A stretch of 64,000 nt of DNA. It comes from an uncultured Actinomycetes bacterium. Its GTDB lineage: Bacteria; Actinomycetota; Thermoleophilia; RBG-16-64-13. Below, in pieces: positions 1,747 through 25,104 of the stretch. A model generated the notes under the pieces. That model had not been told where the DNA came from and did not search any database. It was given only the letters and a program-made list of their open reading frames with translations. The stretch lies in NCBI GenBank assembly GCA_963706025.1, contig CAVPLM010000003.1, positions 512,001 to 576,000 of the forward strand. The letters are read 5' to 3'. The position numbers and the translations under genes were made by a program. Position 1 is the stretch's first letter; each line of letters opens with the position of its first letter.

Positions 1747-3822
1747 CTAGATCGCGTTGCCGATACGCCAGCCGGCCGCGGTCGCGTCGGGGATAAGGCC
1801 GGGGTCCTCGCAGTCGCCGATGGCGTAGATCTCCGGCACCTTTCCTTCAAGGCTCTCGGCCAGGGCCGTGCTCGCCGCGAAGGGCAGCGCACATATGACG
1901 CTGTCGGCCTCGATGGTCCGCGTCTCGCCCTCCTTGGTGACCAGGGTCAGCCCCTTGTCGGTGATCTCAACGAGCTTCACGCCCGCCAGTCGCTCGACGC
2001 CCTTCTTGTCGAACCAGTAGAAGAGGCGGGTCCTTCTCTCCGGGTACATCCCACTGCCGAGCTCTTCCCCGGTGTCGACGATCGTCACCTGCCTGCCCCG
2101 CTTCGTCAGGAACTCTCCCAACTGGCAGCCCTGGATGGCTCCCCCGATGATCACCGCGCTCTTGCCAACCGGCATCCAGTAACGGGTCAGGTCTCTCAGC
2201 GTCTTGGGACCGAGGATCCAGAGATAGAACCTTAGAGTCCCGTACAGGTCGTCGCTCCTGATGACGTTCCGTCCCTCGACCCCCGGGACGTCCGGCAGCG
2301 TGGGAGAGCCTCCGGCCGCTACGATGACCACGTCGGGCTTGGCCTCCGCGATGGCCGCGGCGTCGAACTCCTTGCCCAGTTGGACGTCGACCCCCAGCTT
2401 CCTGACCTGCCTCCTGAAGAACCAGATCACCTCGCGCACGTCTTCGACCTCGGACCCCTTGACCAGGGCAGCCAGAGACATTGACCCGCCGAGGTATTTG
2501 CCTTTTTCCCACAGGCTGACGGTATGTCCTCGCAGCGCGGCTACCCTGGCCGCCTGCATCCCCGCCGGCCCCCCACCGATAACGAGCACCTGCTTCTTCG
2601 CGGCGGTGGGCGCCGGCTCATAGGAATCGGTCCCGAAACAGGCATTGATGCGGCAGTGACGCGGCTCGTTATACGTGCTGCTGCAGTGGCCGCACTTGGT
2701 GCACGGTTGGATATCGGTGGATCGGCCCGTGCGCACCTTGTTGGGATACTCGGGGTCGGCGAAGATACGGCGATTGAAGCCGATCAGATCGGCCTTGCCC
2801 TCTTTGAGCACCTGCTCGCCCGAGTCCGCGTCGAAGCCACACACCGTCATGACGGGGATGGAGACCACCTGCTTGATGGCCGCCGCCAGCGGTACGTTGC
2901 AGAGGGCTCCCTTGTGAGTCCAGTCCATCTCCTTTGGGAACTCGCTCAAGGGGATGTGCGGTTCGGGATAGAAGAGGGTGTCGCTCAGATACGAGCCCTG
3001 GTGCATGCCCACCCAGTGCGAGCGCACGTGCAGGGAATCGACCCCGGCGCCCTGGTAGATCCGGGCCAGCTCCTTGTTCTCCTCAAGGCTGAGACCCAGT
3101 TCGCCGACCCCGGCCTCGATACCGTTCATGAACACCTGTATCGCGAAGTCGGGCCCGACGCGTTTCCTGACGGCCTCGATGGTATCGAGCACGAAACGCG
3201 TCCGGTTCTCCATGCTTTGCGGCCCATAGATGTCGTCGCGCCGGTTCCAGAAGCGCGACAGGAAGCTGTCGAAGAGGTGGTCCGCCCCCGTATGGATCTC
3301 GATGCCGTCGAAGCCTGCATCGGCCAGCCGGCCCGCGGCGGCGGCGTATCGCTCGACCAGCTCCTCGATCTCGGCGATGGTCAGCTGCTCGGGCGGCTCT
3401 TCCTCGTGGACGTCGAACATGGACGGGAAGGTCACGGGCGACGCGGCAACCCTCTTCGCAATCGTGTGGTAGACGCCGCCCCAGGGGCCGCGATGGTAGA
3501 ACTGCATGAACGCGGGACAACCGCCCTTGTGGATCTCGGCGGCAAGGTCGCTGATATCTTTCATGTACTTGTCGTCGTCGACGCGGAGGCGGCGGTCACC
3601 CTCTTCGGCCAGCGGCCATTCCATCGCGGGAGTCTCGACGACGATCAGTCCCGCCCCGCCCCGAGCCACCGCTCCGTAGAACGCCTTGGCGATGTCGCCG
3701 AAGCGGCGCTCGCCGGAGTCGAAGAAGTACGTCTGGGCCGCGGTCTTGACGATCCTGTTCTTCAGCTGCACCTTGCCGATGTTGATTGGCGAAAAGAGGT
3801 GCTCGTAGCGGAAACGCGCCAT
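1747..3822 (-). CDS. NADH:flavin oxidoreductase (Old Yellow Enzyme / 2,4-dienoyl-CoA reductase-like, FMN + Fe-S + FAD)
   Basis: LFSPINIG..LKNRIV N-terminus, AGFDGIEIH, NRRDDIYG, CTKCGHC..C cluster motif, and IGGGPAG Rossmann motif. Confidence 0.9.
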   Translation of the reverse strand: MARFRYEHLFSPINIGKVQLKNRIVKTAAQTYFFDSGERRFGDIAKAFYGAVARGGAGLIVVETPAMEWPLAEEGDRRLRVDDDKYMKDISDLAAEIHKGGCPAFMQFYHRGPWGGVYHTIAKRVAASPVTFPSMFDVHEEEPPEQLTIAEIEELVERYAAAAGRLADAGFDGIEIHTGADHLFDSFLSRFWNRRDDIYGPQSMENRTRFVLDTIEAVRKRVGPDFAIQVFMNGIEAGVGELGLSLEENKELARIYQGAGVDSLHVRSHWVGMHQGSYLSDTLFYPEPHIPLSEFPKEMDWTHKGALCNVPLAAAIKQVVSIPVMTVCGFDADSGEQVLKEGKADLIGFNRRIFADPEYPNKVRTGRSTDIQPCTKCGHCSSTYNEPRHCRINACFGTDSYEPAPTAAKKQVLVIGGGPAGMQAARVAALRGHTVSLWEKGKYLGGSMSLAALVKGSEVEDVREVIWFFRRQVRKLGVDVQLGKEFDAAAIAEAKPDVVIVAAGGSPTLPDVPGVEGRNVIRSDDLYGTLRFYLWILGPKTLRDLTRYWMPVGKSAVIIGGAIQGCQLGEFLTKRGRQVTIVDTGEELGSGMYPERRTRLFYWFDKKGVERLAGVKLVEITDKGLTLVTKEGETRTIEADSVICALPFAASTALAESLEGKVPEIYAIGDCEDPGLIPDATAAGWRIGNAI

Positions 3823-17771: not shown

Positions 17772-19545
17772 CTACTGCCCTTTCCACTCGAAGAGGTGCA
17801 GGTCACCGTTGGCTACGAAGGCGATATGCGAGTCCGAAGCCGAGATGAACGGTGAGAGCCAGGGAGGGTCGGGCTGCTCGGCCAAGACCTGCTCGTAATT
17901 GCCGTTGAGGCCCCGCGCCACGATCTCGTACGTGTTCCCGTCCGTGCTATCCATGGGCCGGAAGTAAGCGGCGAACGTAGACGCGGCAGTCGCGAAATCG
18001 CCCTGCGGCGTCGACGTCCCATCGGTCTCCGGAAGCGAGGTCGAGCGCCCTGAGGCCGTTCTCCGAGTACACGAGTGTGTCGCCCCCGATGGACGGCCGC
18101 CACGCTTCGCTGCCGACCAGTAGCGGTTGGGCCGCGAGATCCGAGAGATCGAGAGAGTACGTGCCGGTCTCGAGACCGCCGTCGGCTGCGGCCTGCTCCC
18201 AGGCAAGGTACTTCTCGCCGACGCTGTAGACCCAGACCGCGTCGCCCATGATCGAGGCTATCGCTGAGGGAACGACCAGCATGGGCGCGTTCGCGGTCCC
18301 ATCCGAACCCGGGACCATCGAATTATAGATCGGCGTCCGCAAGTATTCCTCCGGACTCGCTTCCCAAGGGCTCTCCTCTATCCAGGTGATCCATACCCCC
18401 GCGGTCTGGGGATAGTAGACATTCCTGTCTCCTCCGGCTATCTCTACTCTCGGACCGTCCGGCACATGGTAGGAGTAGATGTGCTGGTCGCTGAAGGTAC
18501 TGCTGGCCTCATCGTATTCGCCTTCCCACCACACCGCCGTATAGCCGTCGACATCTATCCCGCCCGCCTCCGAGGCCTCGACCGGCAACTCCACCATATT
18601 CCCCGTGATCAAGTTGTAGGCATAGAGCTGGGAGGCCGTGTCGGTCCGCGTTGCCATCAACAGGATGTTGTCGGACACGCTCACCTCCATCACCGGAGCC
18701 GGCACCTCGGGGATCTGCATCTCCACCCATTCGCCTGCCGAGTCCCCCGGATCTCCCGCGACGCTGGTCGTGCTCGGCGATGAGGTCGTGGAGGTCTCGG
18801 GCTCGGTGGTGCTCGTTGTCTCTTCCGCCGTCGAAGTGGTGGTGGTACTGGTGGGGGGGGCCGCGGACGTGGTGGTGACTTCTCCATCATCTCCGCCTCG
18901 GGCGAGAACCAGGGGCACGGCTACGGCCACCGCGATCACCACGACGGCCAGGGCGGCGATGGCGATCCACAGGCCACGACGGCTCTTGCCCTGCGGTCCG
19001 CCACCGGGGCCTCCAGGACCGGGCGGCCCGCTCGGCCCTCCCGGATAGCCGGCCCGCCCGGGTAGCCTGGGCCTCCCGGGTAGCCTGGGCCGCCGGGGGC
19101 TGCGTGGCCGCCTTGCCCGGTGTAACCACTTTGTCCGGTGTAGCCGCCACTGGCTCCTTGACCGGGCGGGTACCCACCCGTTGAAGGGGCGGAGGGCGTC
19201 AAGATGAGGGTAGGAGGTAGTGTAGACGCCGAAGGGGCAACGACAGGCTGGTCGGTGGGTGGAGGTACCGGCGTGAAGGGCGGGGAAGCCGCGGCCACGA
19301 CCGGCGGCTGGGCGAGGGCGCCGCCGGCTTCGCTCGGGCCACTGGAGACGGCTGCTGCGGCGCCACCGGACGCTGTGCCGCCGCCGGCCGCCGAGGCGCC
19401 TCCAGCCGCGGCGGTTCCAGCCGACGGGCGCGGGCCCGGCTCCTGCCGCACCCACAGTGGGCTCTGCAGGACCGACCGCGGCCCCGCAGTTGCGGCAGAA
19501 GCGGGCGTCGGCGGGCACTTCCTTCCCACACGCGCTGCAATACAT
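17772..19545 (-). CDS. Zinc-ribbon membrane-anchored protein with a Gly/Pro-rich cytoplasmic region, Thr-rich linker and beta-propeller-like ectodomain; several apparent frameshifts
   Basis: MYCSACG..FCRNCG, GGPGYP repeats, TM segment (LWIAIAALAVVVIAVAVAVPLVL) and poly-Thr. The C-terminus is in ORF 17772-18206. Confidence 0.75.
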
Positions 19546-19775
19546 CTCGTCACCCCCATCGGACGGCCTGTCGCGAGTCCAGCGTGGCGCCACGGAATCG
19601 CGCCTGGCCTCTAAGGATACAACCGGACCTCCACAAATGTGCGCGTGAAGAGGCAGGCTGAGTCGGTTCTATCCGAGAGTCCGGACGCCGTACTGTGGAT
19701 AGCAGTTGCCCGAGTGACGCGTCTCGGGGCAGTTCGGACCGGCACGAGCCGATGGTCGGGCTTCCTGAATAGCCG

Positions 19776-21215
19776 CTATCCGTCTTCGCCGGGCAGGGCG
19801 CCCATGGTCTCCGGCTCCCCCGGCACCTCTGGGCCGCCGAACTCCATCTGTTCGTGGTGCTCGTCACGCTGCAGGCGCGGGGCGCGGCGAAAGGTGACAT
19901 TGGCGTGGCGCGAGGGGTAGTCGATGCCGGTGCCGCCCAGCAGGTCGGCCACGGTGAGGATCTGCAGGCGTGGATGCTTGGTGTGCCAGCCGGGAGAGCT
20001 ACAGAAACCGGCCGAGGCAGCCTCGGTGCGCATGGGCTGGGTGGGCTCTTTCATGGAGATGAGCACACCGATCTCCGCTTCCTCGCGCTCGACCACGCCC
20101 CGGAGATCGCGCACGTGAGTCACGTTGGTATCGCCGGCTTTGACGGAAATAATCACCTGCTTCGTCTTGCCTTTGGCCTCGTCGTGGAAGTAGAGGCGGC
20201 CGTCGATGCCTCGGTCGGCGCCTTTCTTGTGCTCCACGGGCCGGGCGCCCACGAGTCCCAGGGCCCACCACTGGAATTGCCAGGGATCCTGAGCGGCAAG
20301 GGCTTCGGCATCGGGGACGGAGACCGGCTCACCGATAACGCGAGGCATTGATTCTTCGCCAAAGGAATCCAAAAGACGGTTCTTGATGAGCGTCATGGCC
20401 AGGTGGGTGATGTCGATGCCGATCCAGTTGCGCTTGAGCTTCTCGGCGGCGATGACGGCGGTGCCGCAGCCGCAGAAGGGGTCGAGGACCAGGTCGCCCT
20501 CGTTGCTGGAGGCCTGGATGATGCGCTCGAGGAGGGCGAGGGGCTTCTGGGTGGGGTAGCCGAGGCGCTCCTGGGCATGGGCGCGAATTGGCGGGATGTC
20601 GTCCCAGATGTTGGTCAGAGGCATGCCGGGCATATCGTCCAGGTATCGCTTGAGCTGAATCCGGCCGTCGGGATTCTTGGGAAACACGAGGGACCCTGTC
20701 GATCAAACTCCTCCATCTTCTCTCTTGACACGGCCCATCCATTTGGATGCGGCTTGTAGCCCTTGTATTCGTACTGGAGATTGGGCCTAACGCCCGGGTT
20801 CCTGAGATCGCTGATCCGATACCGACGTCCGTCAGGTTCGGTGTGGCGGTAGAACTGTTCCAAGTATTCCTTTGAGTAGGGAAGGTACTGGAGGTTAAAA
20901 CGAAACGTTCCAGATTCAGAGTAGAAAAGGATCGAGTCTGTGACCGACCCATAATTCCGCGTCGCGTTCCCGTGAGCGCTCGTCCTCTTCCAGATGATCT
21001 CGTTATCGAAGTTCTGTGCCCCGAAAATGGCGTCCATCAGCATCTTCAGATAGTGACTCGCGGTGGGATCGCAGTGCAGGTAGATGCTGCCGGTAGGCTT
21101 GAGCACCCTGCGCAGCTCCACAAGGCGAGGCGCCATCATGGCCAAGTAGGCGAGCATGTTGCTGGGGCTGCAGGATGTCGAGGTTGTCGCCATAGTAGAG
21201 GACGTTGCGGTTCAT
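19776..21215 (-). pseudogene. Site-specific DNA methyltransferase fused to an Mrr-like domain, with an internal deletion removing the catalytic DPPF region
   Basis: MNRNVLYYGDNLDIL joins out of frame (~21168) to PSNMLAYLAMMAPRL..TGSIYLHCD. YPTQKP, VLDPFCGCGT and ADRGIDG..IISVK are present; no D/N/S-PP-Y/F motif. Additional frameshift near 20695. Confidence 0.8.
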
Positions 21216-21225
21216 GAGGTGGGCG

Positions 21226-21840
21226 TCAGCTCCAATGGCTCGGACGTCTCAGAACATATCCATCAGGCTTCTCTATATCCTCAGGCAGCTGAGCTGCCGC
21301 GATCTTGGCTCGGCCCATTGTGAACGACACATTTGCTGCCTCGGCCAGGGCGCTTGAATGCCGCGAGGGAGGGAACGCGACCACAACCCGTTTCTTGGGC
21401 GCAAGCTGGTGGACCTTCTTAACTGCCGCCAAGAGATCGCTATCCCCTGATGCCAGCAGACAGGTATCAAACGTGTCCGCAAGAGCATCGCCGAACATCT
21501 CGAGGCCGATTAGGAGATCTGTCATTTTCTCCTTCGGCACTGTGTCGACCATACCGCAGTATGGGCACGTTCGGGGAGTATCCAGGTACTGCCCGTAGTG
21601 GAGGGAGCATTGCCCAAGCGTCTCAAGTGCTTCAAGATAGATGCCCTGCCTGCGAACCTTGTCTGGCGGCGACGACACCCTGGCTGTGAAGTATTTGACC
21701 GAGACGAGGGACTGGGCCGGCGACAGCAGCGAATGGCAGAGGGCAGGGACGTCAAGCCAGTAGAAGCGCCGCCAGCCTTTGCTCTTGAGCCCGAAGTAGA
21801 GGTTGAAGCCATCCACGTAAGCTGCCACTCTCTCAGTCAT
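21226..21840 (-). CDS. NYN (LabA/DUF88, PIN-fold) domain protein, predicted RNase with a CxxC insert
   Basis: YVDGFNLY, KYFTA, CPYC, EKMTD and SGDSD acidic active-site motifs; GAAGGGAAG RBS. Confidence 0.9.
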   Translation of the reverse strand: MTERVAAYVDGFNLYFGLKSKGWRRFYWLDVPALCHSLLSPAQSLVSVKYFTARVSSPPDKVRRQGIYLEALETLGQCSLHYGQYLDTPRTCPYCGMVDTVPKEKMTDLLIGLEMFGDALADTFDTCLLASGDSDLLAAVKKVHQLAPKKRVVVAFPPSRHSSALAEAANVSFTMGRAKIAAAQLPEDIEKPDGYVLRRPSHWS

Positions 21841-21856
21841 TACTTCCCTTCATATA

Positions 21857-21885
21857 TTGACATAACTGGCAAGTGGGTGTAGGAT
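21857..21885 (+). promoter_or_regulatory. Sigma70-type promoter divergent from the NYN gene
   Basis: TTGACA (21857-21862), 17-nt spacer, TAGGAT (21880-21885). Confidence 0.75.
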
Positions 21886-21891
21886 GCTCCG

Positions 21892-21955
21892 CAACAGCAC
21901 CGGGGATAGTATCCCCGGCCCGACAGCCCTTCGAAAGGAGGGCTGTTTCTTTTTT
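21892..21955 (+). ncRNA. Candidate ~65-nt small RNA with two hairpins
   Basis: Bounded by the consensus promoter and an intrinsic terminator. Contains hairpin CCGGGGAT-agt-ATCCCCGG (21900-21918) followed by the terminator hairpin; no complete ORF in the interval. Confidence 0.6.
21923..21955 (+). terminator. Rho-independent terminator
   Basis: ACAGCCCT-TC-GAAA-GG-AGGGCTGT followed by TTCTTTTTT. Confidence 0.85.
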
Positions 21956-22082
21956 GCCCTCCCAAGATCAGCCCAATGTCCTCAAGCTCGATCAGTCTCG
22001 CTGCCGCGGCTCCTACGATCCTGGTTCTACTCTACATGATCTTCTGGGGACTCTCTCGTATACGACCAAGGTACGATTCTGG

Positions 22083-22181
22083 CACCCGGCGTAGCTCGAC
22101 CAGGCGGGGCGCCATCATGGCAAGGTAGGCGAGCATGTTGCTGGGGCCGAGGAAGGTCCAGAAGGCGCGCAAGGCGTCGGC
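22083..22181 (-). pseudogene. Fragment of a second allele of the DNA methyltransferase
   Basis: Encodes ADALRAFWTFLGPSNMLAYLAMMAPRLVELRRV; 22083-22147 matches 21104-21168 with only synonymous differences. Confidence 0.8.
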
Positions 22182-22234
22182 GAAACGCTTTCGCCTCGCT
22201 CGCGGAGGAGACTGCCTGTGATAGCCTTCCGGGC

Positions 22235-23065
22235 ATGACACAGGTGATCCTCCTTGCCGTTGTGGGCTTTGTGGGCGGGACTTTCGGGTCCATGGTCGGG
22301 CTGGGTGGAGGTGTCTTCATCATCCCCGTGCTCACGCTGTTCCTGGACGTTCCCATCCACAACGCCATCGCGGCCAGCCTGGCCGCCGTCATCGCTACTT
22401 CGACCACCGGGTCCGTCACCTACGTGCGCCAGGAGCTGACCAACCTGCGGTTGGGCGCGACCATGGAAACGGCCCTTACCGTAGGAGCTTTGGCCGGAGG
22501 ACTGGTGGGGGCGCTTCTTGGCAAGGAGGTGCTAAGCGCCGTCTTCGGGGCGGTAATGGTGGCGGTCTCGATATACATGGGGCTCACTCGGAACGCAGCT
22601 CCCAACTATCCGGCCGAAGGAGCGGACCTAGGGAGTCTGGGAGCTACCTATTTCGACCGTAACCTCGACCGTGACGTGCGCTATCGAGTGAAGCGCCTGC
22701 CGCTTGGGCTGTTCACGGGACTGGTGGCCGGTAACGTATCGGGTCTGCTGGGTGTGGGGGGAGGTTTCATGACGGTGCCCGTCATGAGGCTCGGGATGGG
22801 CATCCCCATGCGGGCAGCCGTCTCTACGAGCAGCTTGATGCTCGGCGTGACGGCCTGCGCCGGAGCGGCGGTGTACTTCGCCCGGGGGATGATGGACCCG
22901 GTGATCACGGTCCCGGTCGTCCTGGGAGTGATGACCGGAGCTTACCTAGGATCCCGCCTAGCGGTCAGAGTGAGGAGCTCCATACTGGCGAGCATCTTGA
23001 CCGTGGTTCTCTTCGCTCTGGCTGTGCAGATGATCCTGGCCTCGGCGGGGTTCAGCCTGAGATGA
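22235..23065 (+). CDS. Sulfite exporter TauE/SafE family membrane protein
   Basis: GSMVGLGGGVFIIP and SGLLGVGGGFMTVP internal repeats. TGaTAGCCT lies 7 nt before the ATG, suggesting a leaderless mRNA. Confidence 0.9.
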   Translation: MTQVILLAVVGFVGGTFGSMVGLGGGVFIIPVLTLFLDVPIHNAIAASLAAVIATSTTGSVTYVRQELTNLRLGATMETALTVGALAGGLVGALLGKEVLSAVFGAVMVAVSIYMGLTRNAAPNYPAEGADLGSLGATYFDRNLDRDVRYRVKRLPLGLFTGLVAGNVSGLLGVGGGFMTVPVMRLGMGIPMRAAVSTSSLMLGVTACAGAAVYFARGMMDPVITVPVVLGVMTGAYLGSRLAVRVRSSILASILTVVLFALAVQMILASAGFSLR

Positions 23066-23430
23066 GGGCTCCGAGCGACTCCGACCCTCGTTTGGCCGCC
23101 CGCCTGTCCCGCCTGCTTCTCGTCGGGCTCAGCCTGGCCGTCCTTCTCCTCTTGACCGGTGTGGTCCTTACCTTGGTGAAGCCCGGGGTGCCCATCTCGG
23201 TCAGTTCCCTTAGAGGACTGCCCGGGGCCCTGGTCGCTCTGGAACCGGGCGGCTTCTTCGATCTGGGGCTGCTCATCCTTCTGGCCACACCGGCCGCCCG
23301 AGTGGTCGCACTCCTTATGGCCTTCGCCCGGCGACGCCTGTGGCTGTTCTCGGGCGTCAGCCTTATCGTGTTGGTCGTCCTGGCGCTGAGCCTGTTCCTC
23401 GGGCTGAGGGGCGCAATATGTTCGATCTAA
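23062..23430 (+). CDS. DUF1634-family membrane protein
   Basis: LGLLILLATPAARV motif; typical partner of tauE; ATGA overlap. Confidence 0.8.
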   Translation: MRAPSDSDPRLAARLSRLLLVGLSLAVLLLLTGVVLTLVKPGVPISVSSLRGLPGALVALEPGGFFDLGLLILLATPAARVVALLMAFARRRLWLFSGVSLIVLVVLALSLFLGLRGAICSI

Positions 23431-23475
23431 GGCTCCTCCCTGCCTCCGGCACCGTTCGAGCGGTGCAGCCCGTTC

Positions 23476-25104
23476 TCAGTCTGCCACCAAGCTGGGATTG
23501 GGAACGCTCACAGAGGCCCCTGTCGCTTTGCGCCCCAACACCCAATGCTCCAGAGCTTCGGCCACACCGTCCCGAAGGTTCGAAGAAGTGATGACGTCGG
23601 CAACCGCCTTGGCCGCCGGAGTGGCGTTGCCCATGGCCACTCCGATGCCGGCCCACTGCAGCAGAGCGGCGTCGGTATCGTGGTCGCCGATCGCCATCGT
23701 CTGCTCGGCTGGGATCTGCATCCGCCGGGCGAGCTGCTGGGCCATCGCGGCCTTCGATGCATCCTGCGAAGTGATATCGACCACTCCCGGCGTTATCTCG
23801 CATATGGTGGCCCGGTCGCCGAACACACGCTGGATGGCAAGCATGGCCGTAGCCGCGGCTTCCTCCTGGAGGTCTCGCAGGTCGAGGAACACCTTGTCGA
23901 TGGGCTCGCCTGCCCGGAGCATCTCGTCGATGCTGCCGACCCTATGCGGCTCCGAGACCTCATAGTTCAGGATTCCCTCGCGCACCAGGTCCCCTAAGCG
24001 GTCGGTGAACCACTCGTCGTCGCTCTCTATGTTGACTATGGCGCCGAGGTCTCGACCCAGGGCCACGATCTGCGCTGTTAGCTCTGGCTCCACCGACACA
24101 TGGGCTAGGCCCGCCGCAGTCTGAACATTCCATAGCAATGCACCGTTGCAGGCGATAAGAGGGGCGCTGAGACCGAGCCGCTGGTGGAAGGGGCGCAAGG
24201 CCCGAGGCGGACGGGACGACACCAACACGACCTCCACGCCTCCTTCGCGCACGGCGGTGATGGCCCGCCTCACCCGCTCGGACATGTGCCGGGGTCCGGA
24301 TAGCAGGGTACCGTCCAGATCGATGAAGATCAGGCGTATCACTCGTCCGGTTCCGACCAGCTGAGCCAGTCCGCGGGAGACATAGTCCAGATGGTGACGC
24401 ATGGCCTGGCGGGCCTGCTGCTCGTTGCCTGACCGGATGGCCCGCCGGATGGCGTCATGCTGCTGCTGCAGCGTGCTCGCCCCGCCCGGCTCGTTGTAGA
24501 AGACGGAGAGAGTGGCGGCCATGTGGTCGTGAAGCAGATCGACGGGCTCTCGCATGACCCGCTCGAACAGCGGGTTGTGGGTGGCCGCGCCGATCGCGGC
24601 ATGGAAGGCGACGTCGTCCTCAGGAGAGACTATCTCGCCCGGGGCGGTCAACAAGTCGGAGAGAATGTGCAGGTCCTCCATGGTGGCGCGGCGCGCGGCC
24701 AAGCTGGCCGCCTCGATCTCCACCGCGCTGCGGATCTCCATCAGCTCGATGACCCGCTCCGCACCCTGTCCCAACAAGGGGGACAGGGGCGCGGCGATAC
24801 CCGGACCGGGGAGGATGGCCACCGTGGTTCCCTGGGCGCCGCGGCCGGTCACGAGCAGGCCGTGGGCTTTCAACTCTCGGAGCGCTTCGCGTACCGCGGG
24901 CCGGCCGACGCCCAGTTGCACGGCCAGGTCCCGCTCCGCCGGGATCCGGTCGCCGGGCTTGTAGTGTCCGGAGGCGATGAGATGCCGGAGCTGATCGGCC
25001 ACCTGGTCGGCCACGGTCTGAGGAGTCACCGGGTGGAGGCGGTCGTCGACAGGATGTGTGCCGTTTCGAGCTCTGCTACGGTCGCCGCTGTGCTCCAAGG
25101 TCAC
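23476..25104 (-). CDS. FadR/GntR regulator fused to a Cof-type HAD phosphatase
   Basis: wHTH (PGDRIPAERDLA..VGRPAVREAL) and FCD domain (DVAFHAAI..QQH), followed by HAD motifs IDLDGTLL, SSR, SK and GDHDTD. Confidence 0.8.
   Translation of the reverse strand: MTLEHSGDRSRARNGTHPVDDRLHPVTPQTVADQVADQLRHLIASGHYKPGDRIPAERDLAVQLGVGRPAVREALRELKAHGLLVTGRGAQGTTVAILPGPGIAAPLSPLLGQGAERVIELMEIRSAVEIEAASLAARRATMEDLHILSDLLTAPGEIVSPEDDVAFHAAIGAATHNPLFERVMREPVDLLHDHMAATLSVFYNEPGGASTLQQQHDAIRRAIRSGNEQQARQAMRHHLDYVSRGLAQLVGTGRVIRLIFIDLDGTLLSGPRHMSERVRRAITAVREGGVEVVLVSSRPPRALRPFHQRLGLSAPLIACNGALLWNVQTAAGLAHVSVEPELTAQIVALGRDLGAIVNIESDDEWFTDRLGDLVREGILNYEVSEPHRVGSIDEMLRAGEPIDKVFLDLRDLQEEAAATAMLAIQRVFGDRATICEITPGVVDITSQDASKAAMAQQLARRMQIPAEQTMAIGDHDTDAALLQWAGIGVAMGNATPAAKAVADVITSSNLRDGVAEALEHWVLGRKATGASVSVPNPSLVAD

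Follow-up and report, generated by a model that had tools for sequence, protein, structure and literature searches.

HEC-09 (Hma-embedded candidate 9) was put forward as a single-gene candidate which, according to the preprint describing it, protected E. coli against none of the phages tested and shares three aspartates with MARF1 (Payne et al., bioRxiv 10.1101/2024.01.29.577857). Because no protection was seen against those phages, its anti-phage role stays a candidate one, and in the accessible part of that preprint we found no mention of an RNA partner. In type III toxin-antitoxin systems (ToxIN, CptIN, TenpIN), an endoribonuclease-type protein gene lies beside a small structured non-coding RNA. 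In a C. difficile prophage the RNA RCd22 (abiF motif) is reported to neutralise AbiF by direct RNA-protein contact in both cis and trans (10.1101/2025.04.15.648962). A Bacteroides fragilis type III CRISPR-associated NYN ribonuclease is described as a sequence-nonspecific trimming enzyme (10.1101/2024.04.08.588522).

The window (the whole 64-kb stretch of DNA that was analysed) encodes a full-length HEC-09 family member with an NYN fold related to that of MARF1. The preprint presents HEC-09 as one protein-coding gene; here that gene has a conserved RNA gene as companion, and the window copy sits in a decayed restriction-modification fragment, not in an Hma system. The module resembles the type III systems in setting an endoribonuclease-type gene beside a small structured RNA, but the protein is NYN/PIN-like and not ToxN-like: Pfam gives NYN only, and PADLOC gives HEC-09 plus one weak NYN model, with no ToxN, CptN, or TenpN toxin. 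The RNA, too, is usually single and divergent with its own promoter and terminator, unlike the toxin-cut repeat arrays of type III systems, and the window has one divergent unit in place of tandem same-strand repeats. A type I assignment does not fit a 204-aa soluble enzyme fold and an RNA that does not overlap the open reading frame and has no cognate-specific complementarity to its start. The model that we propose for the NYN module is that of AbiF and RCd22, in which a conserved structured RNA motif adjoins a toxic defence-type protein; AbiF differs in being an Abi_2, HEPN/Cas13-related protein with an unrelated RNA (10.1101/2025.04.15.648962), and its inhibition has experimental support, whereas that of NYN is predicted by analogy. 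Like the B. fragilis enzyme, which works in defence with a defined structured RNA (crRNA intermediates), the module joins a small bacterial NYN RNase to such an RNA, but neither a CRISPR array nor a cas gene is present here, and no part of the RNA varies as a spacer would.

Literature searches, which covered titles and abstracts for toxin-antitoxin pairs, returned, among the papers listed, no pair of an NYN protein and a small RNA, no report of an NYN domain with a covarying RNA motif, and no work on NYN with a non-coding RNA partner in anti-phage defence. The RNA partner appears undescribed. The original prediction that no named system has this form holds for the pair, for which Rfam also lacks a family, but not for the protein, whose family was already named HEC-09.

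The nuclease and its divergent RNA gene

The elements of the module in the window are as follows.

21226 to 21840, minus strand: NYN-domain nuclease gene, 204 aa (open reading frame; PADLOC family HEC-09, Pfam PF01936)
21857 to 21885, plus strand: predicted promoter of the small RNA, TTGACA-17-TAGGAT (10 of 12 consensus matches)
21891 to 21958, plus strand: small RNA gene with conserved 5′ tail, hairpin 1, and short linker (covariance model R1 and fold)
21899 to 21919, plus strand: hairpin 1, 8-9 bp, pentaloop UAGUA (fold; delimited as 21900-21918 in the sequence scan)
21922 to 21955, plus strand: small RNA terminator hairpin with 11 pairs, GAAA loop, and U tract (stem-loop 21922-21947, T run to 21955)

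Residues 3-204 of the NYN protein align to positions 2-203 of the 203-position PADLOC profile PDLC04163 (HEC-09; E 1.2e-79), and it scores 28.9 bits against Pfam PF01936, whose curated cutoff is 24.2; NCBIfam has no family for it. Its AlphaFold model (pLDDT 92.3) had as best Foldseek matches 2qip (E 1.9e-10) and the MARF1 NYN structures 5yaa and 6fdl. As predicted from the sequence, the protein keeps the acidic residues of its family: D10, D108, D133, and D135, the predicted metal-binding residues, are invariant among 37 family members including the window protein (alignment A1). A protein search counted 2770 relatives. In the window, NYN has an MTase-Mrr relic and a TauE gene for neighbours, with no Hma system around it; among 121 related loci, an HmaA-type open reading frame lies upstream of NYN in 13 and an HmaB-type one downstream in 6. 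Two neighbours of each type were checked against profiles, which confirmed the HmaA-type frame in L035 and L039.

On the opposite strand, the −35 hexamer of the small RNA promoter begins 16 nt from the NYN start codon. A 5-kb scan gave three promoter-like sites, against 1.0 ± 1.1 in shuffled sequence. The predicted 66-nt transcript folds as exactly hairpin 1 plus the terminator hairpin (−34.7 kcal/mol, z −5.80), and none of 200 shuffles folded equally well. Thus the promoter, the perfect hairpin, and the GAAA-loop terminator with its U tract are all where the original prediction had placed them, and the sequence supplies the promoter, conserved structure, and intrinsic terminator by which a stand-alone bacterial small RNA gene is recognised. 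R1 matches the window RNA with 68.9 bits (E 4.6e-21), and this match beside NYN is unique both in the window and in the whole 3.66-Mb genome. Rfam 15 gave no match at E <= 1 across 19000-24000; for 21840-21990, the best of nine matches at E <= 10 reached 15 bits, the gathering score being 43.

Two features noted by eye were discarded: in the window the 5′ tail can pair with the terminator's 3′ half, an alternative that is not retained in other loci, and a −10-like hexamer on the NYN strand within hairpin 1 has its key base wrong in 60 of 106 copies. Only one RNA run, the metatranscriptome X20, contained any of the stretch (6% of sampled words). Over 19700-22500 it gave one near-identical contig (21970-22192), and its contigs cover neither the small RNA nor NYN, although contigs would miss a 65-nt RNA anyway.

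Conservation, covariation, and layout of the RNA

The covariance model R1 was built from 31 RNA copies and applied to the related loci with a threshold of E <= 0.01. A match adjoins NYN in 107 of the 121 loci, and in 102 of the 107 loci whose NYN identity is at least 43%; among the five misses in that range, two have less than 110 nt of upstream sequence and one has a 21.5-bit match. Loci L030 and L131 have close NYN genes and no RNA. Conversely, no more than 150 nt separates 107 of the 115 RNA copies from the NYN gene, and the titles of the RNA-bearing records name at least 12 phyla. These copies come from the 80 genome matches kept out of 559 confirmed. Across 151 genomes of the phylum, four match HEC-09 strongly (E <= 1e-60), and in every one of them a strong RNA match lies directly beside the gene. 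One strong RNA-like match (48 bits, in genome G177) stands apart: neither of its 1.5-kb flanks contains an NYN gene, and the HEC-09 profile has no match in that genome. Separately, we note that more distant NYN subfamilies have different hairpin-plus-terminator RNAs alongside.

The family consensus consists of a short conserved 5′ tail, a hairpin of 7-8 bp with the pentaloop U-A-G-Y-A, a CC linker, and a terminator hairpin with U tract. In the 31-sequence seed alignment, 95.7% of cells were paired versus 79.5% in shuffles, and the covariation score was 0.549 versus 0.224; no shuffle out of 500 scored as high, and slid controls gave 0.06-0.15. For 108 distinct copies, 96.8% of cells were paired versus 78.1%, again with none of 500 shuffles as high. 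Compensatory changes occurred in these copies at 15 of 16 base pairs, including 7 of 8 modelled pairs of the terminator helix, counts that lean toward structure because alignment A5 is model-fitted. Unpaired bases are near-invariant across phyla: C5 and C8 in 109/109 copies, the loop G in 105/106, and the loop A in 100/106. The proposal that homologs would carry a covarying two-hairpin RNA with promoter and terminator upstream, and that NYN owns a self-contained small RNA gene, is strongly supported by these loci, their covariation, and promoters adapted to the lineage. The small RNA gene is conserved, structured, promoter-driven, and physically tied to NYN in many phyla and in three orientations.

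We consider it highly improbable that the hairpins act as DNA, whether as a recombination site, an operator, or a replication signal, or that they are a terminator left behind by a plus-strand gene since lost. The window copy of hairpin 1 is perfectly palindromic, and the element has conserved AAC and GTT on its 5′ and 3′ sides, respectively. These may loosely resemble the ends of integron attC sites. Yet the half-sites are free to change in sequence as long as they still pair, a pattern better suited to base-pairing than to protein-DNA recognition, and the lineage-adapted promoters at constant distance and the U tracts on a single strand also argue against a DNA element. A lost-gene terminator would not recur in these many loci with unrelated neighbourhoods.

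Relative to NYN, the RNA is divergent only in 94 of the related loci and co-directional in 7, and 5 have convergent downstream copies; the co-directional layout also occurs in three genomes of the phylum sample. Some loci carry arrays of two to four units, as in L036, where each of four units has its own promoter, and in L059, where three head-to-tail units share a single promoter. Tandem units behind one promoter, and the order promoter, RNA, terminator, nuclease gene in the co-directional variant, are further likenesses to type III systems. At most loci a consensus −35/−10 pair stands at constant distance from the RNA 5′ end, and in Bacteroidota- or Flavobacterium-titled loci it is replaced by a TAnnTTTG-type box, which we take to be the Bacteroidota promoter consensus. 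In co-directional loci, 20-35 nt separate a weakened U tract from the start codon, with a Shine-Dalgarno-like site. In divergent loci, the distance from RNA start to NYN start codon has a median of 65 nt and a minimum of 34 and is filled by the RNA promoter; no recognisable separate NYN promoter was found in them.

That last observation is compatible with a role of the RNA in controlling NYN expression only, as a cis-antisense RNA, an attenuating leader or terminator, or a convergent 3′ antisense in a type I-like manner. In all arrangements, the RNA is either a terminator-bearing leader or antisense to a read-through NYN transcript, and within Hma systems NYN shares the orientation of the hmaA and hmaB genes on either side of it. 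An NYN mRNA begun further upstream, as in hmaA-NYN-hmaB operons, would include an exact antisense copy of the RNA. However, an element acting purely in cis would have no need of a conserved loop or tail, and both are near-invariant across phyla; the independent promoters, the presence of as many as four RNA genes in an array, and the three orientations suggest dosage of a trans product. Pairing to the translation start was little better for cognate than for non-cognate pairs (−24.8 versus −23.1 kcal/mol, p 0.056), as was pairing to the coding sequence (p 0.017), and GC content, which cognates share, confounds both comparisons. A base-pairing model in which the small RNA acts on the translation start or coding sequence was set aside because this cognate advantage is marginal and GC-confounded. 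We regard control of expression alone as unlikely but still a reading to be reckoned with, and cis-antisense control may act together with a trans mechanism. The divergent, co-directional, and convergent layouts and the arrays argue for a trans-acting partner and, together with the conservation of the loop sequences from phylum to phylum, make a trans protein-RNA partnership more likely than pure leader antisense.

The neighbouring relic, flanking repeats, and insertion site

The DNA around the module in the window contains the following elements.

19776 to 21193, minus strand: MTase-Mrr relic, a neighbour outside the module (Pfam: positions 24-219 of the N6_N4_Mtase profile, split between two frames, and Mrr_cat)
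21103 to 21182, no strand assigned: direct repeat copy A, within the downstream MTase relic (80 nt, 84% identical to copy B)
22082 to 22161, no strand assigned: direct repeat copy B, an orphan MTase fragment upstream of the RNA (repeat of copy A)
19630 to 22190, no strand assigned: approximate extent of DNA missing in two sister genomes (blastn synteny)

An MTase-Mrr gene had been predicted 10 nt past NYN. An open reading frame does start there and its first 15 codons are MTase-typical, but it then runs out of frame; the frame with the MTase domain starts at 21193 without the N-terminal part of intact homologs, which have 77-187 additional in-frame residues, DPPF included. An extra C after 20691, present in all three DNA runs, joins the two MTase frames. 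The hint that this gene belongs to the module was discarded: of the 121 other loci, only 3 show any similarity to the MTase, in no case adjacent to NYN, and the window copy lacks the catalytic N-terminal part. The MTase-Mrr gene is a truncated relic and not in the module. Of the overall prediction, the pairing of a small RNA gene with NYN is strongly supported on comparative grounds, and the part given to MTase-Mrr is not supported.

Synteny with the sister genomes G001 and G003 (blastn) breaks at about 19627 and 22194, and both have an SDR gene at the site and lack the module. Further signs of mobility or selfishness are the 292 plasmid records that bear NYN relatives and the want of a close relative in the 60 related genomes searched, where the best identity was 38%. 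The window cassette is bracketed by the imperfect repeats A and B, segments of a host gene, in which every difference over shared codons is synonymous. A flanking direct repeat was scored in 23 of the 121 other loci, or about 20 after removal of L027, L048, and L041, where it is an RNA copy or self-match; it corresponds to the 3′ end of the long upstream open reading frame in L013 and L109 and to the beginning of the downstream frame in L055.

Such repeats at the ends or starts of genes would accord with a different role for the RNA, namely as a positive cofactor, a guide-like scaffold, or a preferred substrate of an active ribonucleoprotein that perhaps serves spread of the cassette and not defence. 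We judge this quite unlikely. The RNA has no variable guide segment and its unpaired parts are conserved, the roughly 900-bp unit holds no integrase or transposase, and flanking repeats are limited to a minority of the loci; such repeats would also result if a circle carrying a piece of a host gene integrated by a single RecA-mediated crossover. A search for fused or intein-hosted NYN forms gave just two longer proteins, which resemble run-on gene calls and are not intein-like by Pfam tags, and no read joint that skips the cassette (an empty site) was found in the three DNA runs. In a version that we hold to be very unlikely, the NYN-RNA ribonucleoprotein would drive a minimal selfish cassette of this size, without a recombinase, that inserts itself at or inside host genes and leaves long imperfect target duplications with largely synonymous differences, the RNA doubling as antidote.

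A proposed RNA brake on the nuclease

The reading that we prefer, with a probability of about 0.55, is that the module consists of the HEC-09 NYN nuclease and a dedicated RNA that acts as a type III- or AbiF-like brake on the nuclease. The RNA of about 65 nt would be transcribed independently and in excess from a strong constitutive promoter, and the NYN protein would bind it via hairpin 1 and be held inactive. A drop in RNA supply, for example when a phage shuts off host transcription or the cassette is lost, would free the nuclease to cut RNA of the cell or the phage. Where the RNA is co-directional, NYN would be reached solely by read-through of the weakened terminator of the RNA, and such access would ensure a high RNA-to-nuclease ratio, as in ToxIN. 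The module probably entered the window genome within the decayed restriction-modification fragment.

Through these comparisons HEC-09, a single-gene candidate that failed its phage test, becomes a two-component protein-RNA module, which suggests why it may have seemed inert. A strongly covarying RNA family absent from Rfam is added, with more than 100 copies. The module has a cultured carrier, plasmid pTHEOS01 of Thermus oshimai JL-2, which makes it directly testable. The RNAs beside distant NYN subfamilies suggest that having an RNA partner may be the general rule for small NYN genes of bacteria. Should the RNA prove to be an antitoxin, control by RNA antitoxins would widen from ToxN and AbiF to PIN-like NYN nucleases, whose fold is one used by eukaryotic antiviral RNases.

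The NYN gene and the small RNA gene in the window

The original prediction described an NYN gene with a divergent small RNA of about 65 nt, and the open reading frame, promoter, hairpin and GAAA-loop terminator that it claimed were all found in the window sequence, at the following positions.

21226-21840, minus strand: NYN open reading frame, 204 aa
21857-21885, plus strand: small RNA promoter, TTGACA-17-TAGGAT, the -35 hexamer beginning 16 nt from the NYN start codon
21900-21918, plus strand: perfect hairpin
21922-21947, plus strand: terminator with 11 pairs and a GAAA loop, then a T run
19776-21215: MTase-Mrr gene downstream of NYN, a relic
21103-21182 and 22082-22161: direct repeat of an MTase segment (80 nt, 84% identical) flanking NYN and the RNA
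17947-19593, minus strand: 548-aa zinc-ribbon protein

The two-hairpin fold of the 66-nt transcript has a predicted energy of -34.7 kcal/mol (z -5.80), which none of 200 shuffles equaled. The Rfam scan proposed as a check yielded no family for the RNA: Rfam 15 gave no match at E ≤ 1 across 5 kb around the locus, and with 151 nt alone the best score was 15 bits vs a gathering score of 43. The RNA is likewise undescribed in the literature searched for NYN paired with a small RNA.

Two sister genomes lack a stretch of 2.5 kb (about 19630-22190) in which the MTase-Mrr relic is followed by NYN and the RNA and then, after a 125-nt spacer, by an MTase fragment; their syntenic site carries an SDR gene instead, whole in G001 and reduced to 86 codons in G003 (L161, L162). 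A search of 60 related genomes turned up no close NYN relative, the best match having 38% identity. The zinc-ribbon protein, which has a weak PADLOC PD-T4-6 match (E 9.9e-9), is syntenic in the sister genomes and therefore lies outside the inserted stretch. The original prediction placed an MTase-Mrr gene 10 nt after NYN; the first 15 codons of the gene (from 21215) do persist there, but they are out of frame with the remainder and the DPPF-bearing segment is missing. The MTase frame from 21193 is without its N-terminal part, and intact homologs carry 77-187 extra in-frame residues, DPPF included. A two-frame split near 20690 was closed by an extra C in the contigs of all three DNA runs. All nucleotide differences between the two MTase repeat copies are synonymous over 21 shared codons, as if the copies derived from two functional alleles.

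Covariation and layout of the RNA

We compared the window with 121 related NYN loci, comprising 80 from species-representative genomes (the best 80 of 559 confirmed, among at least 600 pattern matches) and a further 41 from metagenomes. The closest relatives visibly carry this two-hairpin element ahead of NYN, and 46 of 122 loci, window counted, matched a loose regular expression for it; this expression let purine or pyrimidine vary independently on each side, so that pairing was not forced, while the general shape was pre-selected. From the 46 loci, 31 were chosen for diversity as a seed alignment, on which RNAalifold recovered both hairpins with compensatory changes at 13 of 16 pairs. Pairing was 95.7% of cells vs 79.5% in shuffles of these 31 sequences, and the covariation score of 0.549 (vs 0.224 shuffled) was reached by none of 500 shuffles and fell to 0.06-0.15 in a control in which the partner was slid by 1-3 columns.

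At E ≤ 0.01, R1, the covariance model built from the 31 copies, had matches in 107 of the 121 NYN loci compared. Where NYN was at least 43% identical, 102 of 107 loci scored at least 30 bits; L022 and L105 missed R1, each with less than 110 nt of upstream sequence, L063 gave a 21.5-bit match below threshold, and L030 and L131 had no R1 match despite this identity. More distant loci matched in 3 of 14 cases, and the window RNA is the single R1 match in the window and in the entire 3.66-Mb genome. The 109 model-aligned copies (108 distinct) showed 96.8% pairing vs 78.1% shuffled, an alignment that is biased towards the modeled structure by being fitted to R1; compensatory changes occurred in 15 of 16 pairs among the 108 distinct copies, and 0/500 shuffles were as high. 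Unpaired positions were also retained: two C in the 5′ tail (109/109 copies), G and A in the pentaloop (105/106 and 100/106, respectively), a CC linker, and UCUUUUU at the 3′ end, together with G-U, A-U and C-G at the terminator base. A conserved upstream structure among NYN homologs, for which a check had been suggested, is thus present, with R1 matches in 107/121 loci and covariation in 15/16 pairs. Taken together, these sequence comparisons argue that NYN and the RNA are a real and well-supported conserved protein-RNA gene pair.

Most loci have TTGACA-like and TAnnnT boxes correctly spaced from the modeled RNA 5′ end. Loci titled Bacteroidota, Flavobacterium and similar have instead a TAnnTTTG-type box, which we take to be the consensus of the main Bacteroidota sigma factor. 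The U tract is confined to one strand, and the element is predicted to be a transcribed gene. This gene is divergent and upstream only in 94 loci, and the distance from the 5′ end of divergent upstream copies to the NYN start has a median of 65 nt (34-266 nt in 99 of 100 copies, 2280 nt in one). In seven loci, and in three more genomes of the phylum sample, it is co-directional, ending in the seven loci 6-19 nt ahead of the NYN start. Co-directional loci have a consensus promoter before the RNA, an interrupted U tract, and between U tract and start codon a Shine-Dalgarno-like site only, a layout in which NYN could be made by terminator read-through only. Five loci have convergent copies right behind the NYN stop; a partial match 2 kb downstream in L125 (17.9 bits, E 0.002) is probably due to chance. 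Arrays also occur, with four units and one promoter each in L036, three head-to-tail units behind a single promoter in L059, and paired units in five further loci.

Neighboring genes, flanking repeats and spread

The conserved unit is NYN plus the RNA, and the neighbors vary. MTase similarity appeared in only 3 of the 121 other loci, never adjacent to NYN, and the window copy is a relic; the MTase-Mrr gene is accordingly dropped as a module member. Thirteen loci have an HmaA-type ORF upstream of NYN, and six have an HmaB-type ORF downstream of it (two of each profile-checked). A radA-type gene was found on one flank in nine loci and an ispD-type gene on the other in eight; in the one locus checked by Pfam, ispD is followed by ispF.

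Imperfect flanking direct repeats were scored in 23 of the 121 other loci, or about 20 after removal of L027, L048 and L041, whose repeats were RNA copies or a self-match. The repeats are 66-450 nt long (L013, L109, L055, L072 and L078, among others) and, in the loci examined, duplicate the 3′ end or start of the adjoining host gene. Mismatches strongly favor one codon position in L013, L072, L109 and L078, with no such bias in L094, L068 and L079. The pattern fits a cassette that would carry along part of its previous host gene and integrate by recombination.

By their record titles, the loci come from Dehalococcoidia and other Chloroflexota, Ignavibacteriota, Planctomycetota, KSB1, Desulfobacterota-type bacteria, Actinomycetota, Pseudomonadota, Verrucomicrobiota, Hydrogenedentota, Bacteroidota, Acidobacteriota and Myxococcota. 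Deinococcota are added by plasmid pTHEOS01 of Thermus oshimai JL-2 (L151, 205812-206550), whose NYN is 47.8% identical and whose divergent RNA lies 60 nt upstream (R1, 58.5 bits). In this cultured organism the module adjoins a helicase-related gene. Among 151 genomes of the phylum, each of the four whose HEC-09 match was strong (E ≤ 1e-60) also has a strong RNA match next to it, and R1 matched in none of the eight whose NYN matches were second-tier (E 1e-35 to 1e-40). One genome of this sample, G177, holds a strong R1 match with a different loop (L135, G177:C34:35728-35795, 48 bits); no NYN lies in the 1.5 kb to each side of it, the HEC-09 profile matches nowhere in that genome, and L135 is an orphan or relic copy. 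Some genome counts take in genomes flagged as unpublished (G198, G061 and G143), and no conclusion depends on these.

Distant NYN subfamilies (about 31-37% identical) have, by eye, other adjacent hairpin-plus-terminator elements that are R1-negative (L118, L119, L123-L127, with L126 among them, L128/L129, L130, and L152 at 3050-3130), and one member sits on a 3461-bp E. coli plasmid. These elements suggest that small NYN genes in general have RNA partners.

The NYN protein and the proposed role of the RNA

The protein has an NYN domain (Pfam, 28.9 bits vs a cutoff of 24.2) and a full-length match to the PADLOC-DB family HEC-09 (E 1.2e-79); an NCBIfam search returned no family. Its predicted structure (pLDDT 92.3, built on 37 relatives) is nearest to LabA-like 2qip (E 1.9e-10) and to the mouse and human MARF1 NYN domains. 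The family numbers 2770 proteins at E ≤ 0.001, from 3405 candidates; among the 120 matches listed, nearly all have lengths of 203-218 aa, and the nearest one shares 77% identity. Across 37 aligned members, D10, N13, D108, D133 and D135 do not vary, nor does a CxxC pair, which bears out the claim that the acidic residues (D10, D108, D133 and D135) are kept.

HEC-09 was described as a single NYN protein embedded in Hma systems, similar to MARF1 with three aspartates in common, that in E. coli gave no protection against any phage tested (10.1101/2024.01.29.577857). The family is known so far only as an inactive single-gene defense candidate; the available portion of that description mentions no RNA partner, whereas the window member has an adjoining RNA gene.

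The conservation, structure, promoter, linkage and layouts of the RNA are established at the level of sequence. Since the RNA occurs in three orientations, with its own promoters, in arrays and with unpaired nucleotides conserved across phyla, it is best explained as a trans-acting partner, and the NYN protein, as the sole other conserved component, would be what recognizes it. The RNA might additionally contribute to NYN control as a cis-antisense RNA or attenuator, given that the divergent loci show no recognizable promoter of NYN's own. Duplex energies revealed no pairing with the start region that was specific to the cognate gene.

For the trans-acting RNA, we favor an antitoxin-like role on the NYN nuclease, with RNA binding, inhibition, toxicity and defense as its putative elements. 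The closest worked example is AbiF with RCd22, and the closest layout is that of ToxIN. Abundant RNA would bind the NYN nuclease via hairpin 1 and hold it inactive, and loss of the RNA supply would set the nuclease free.
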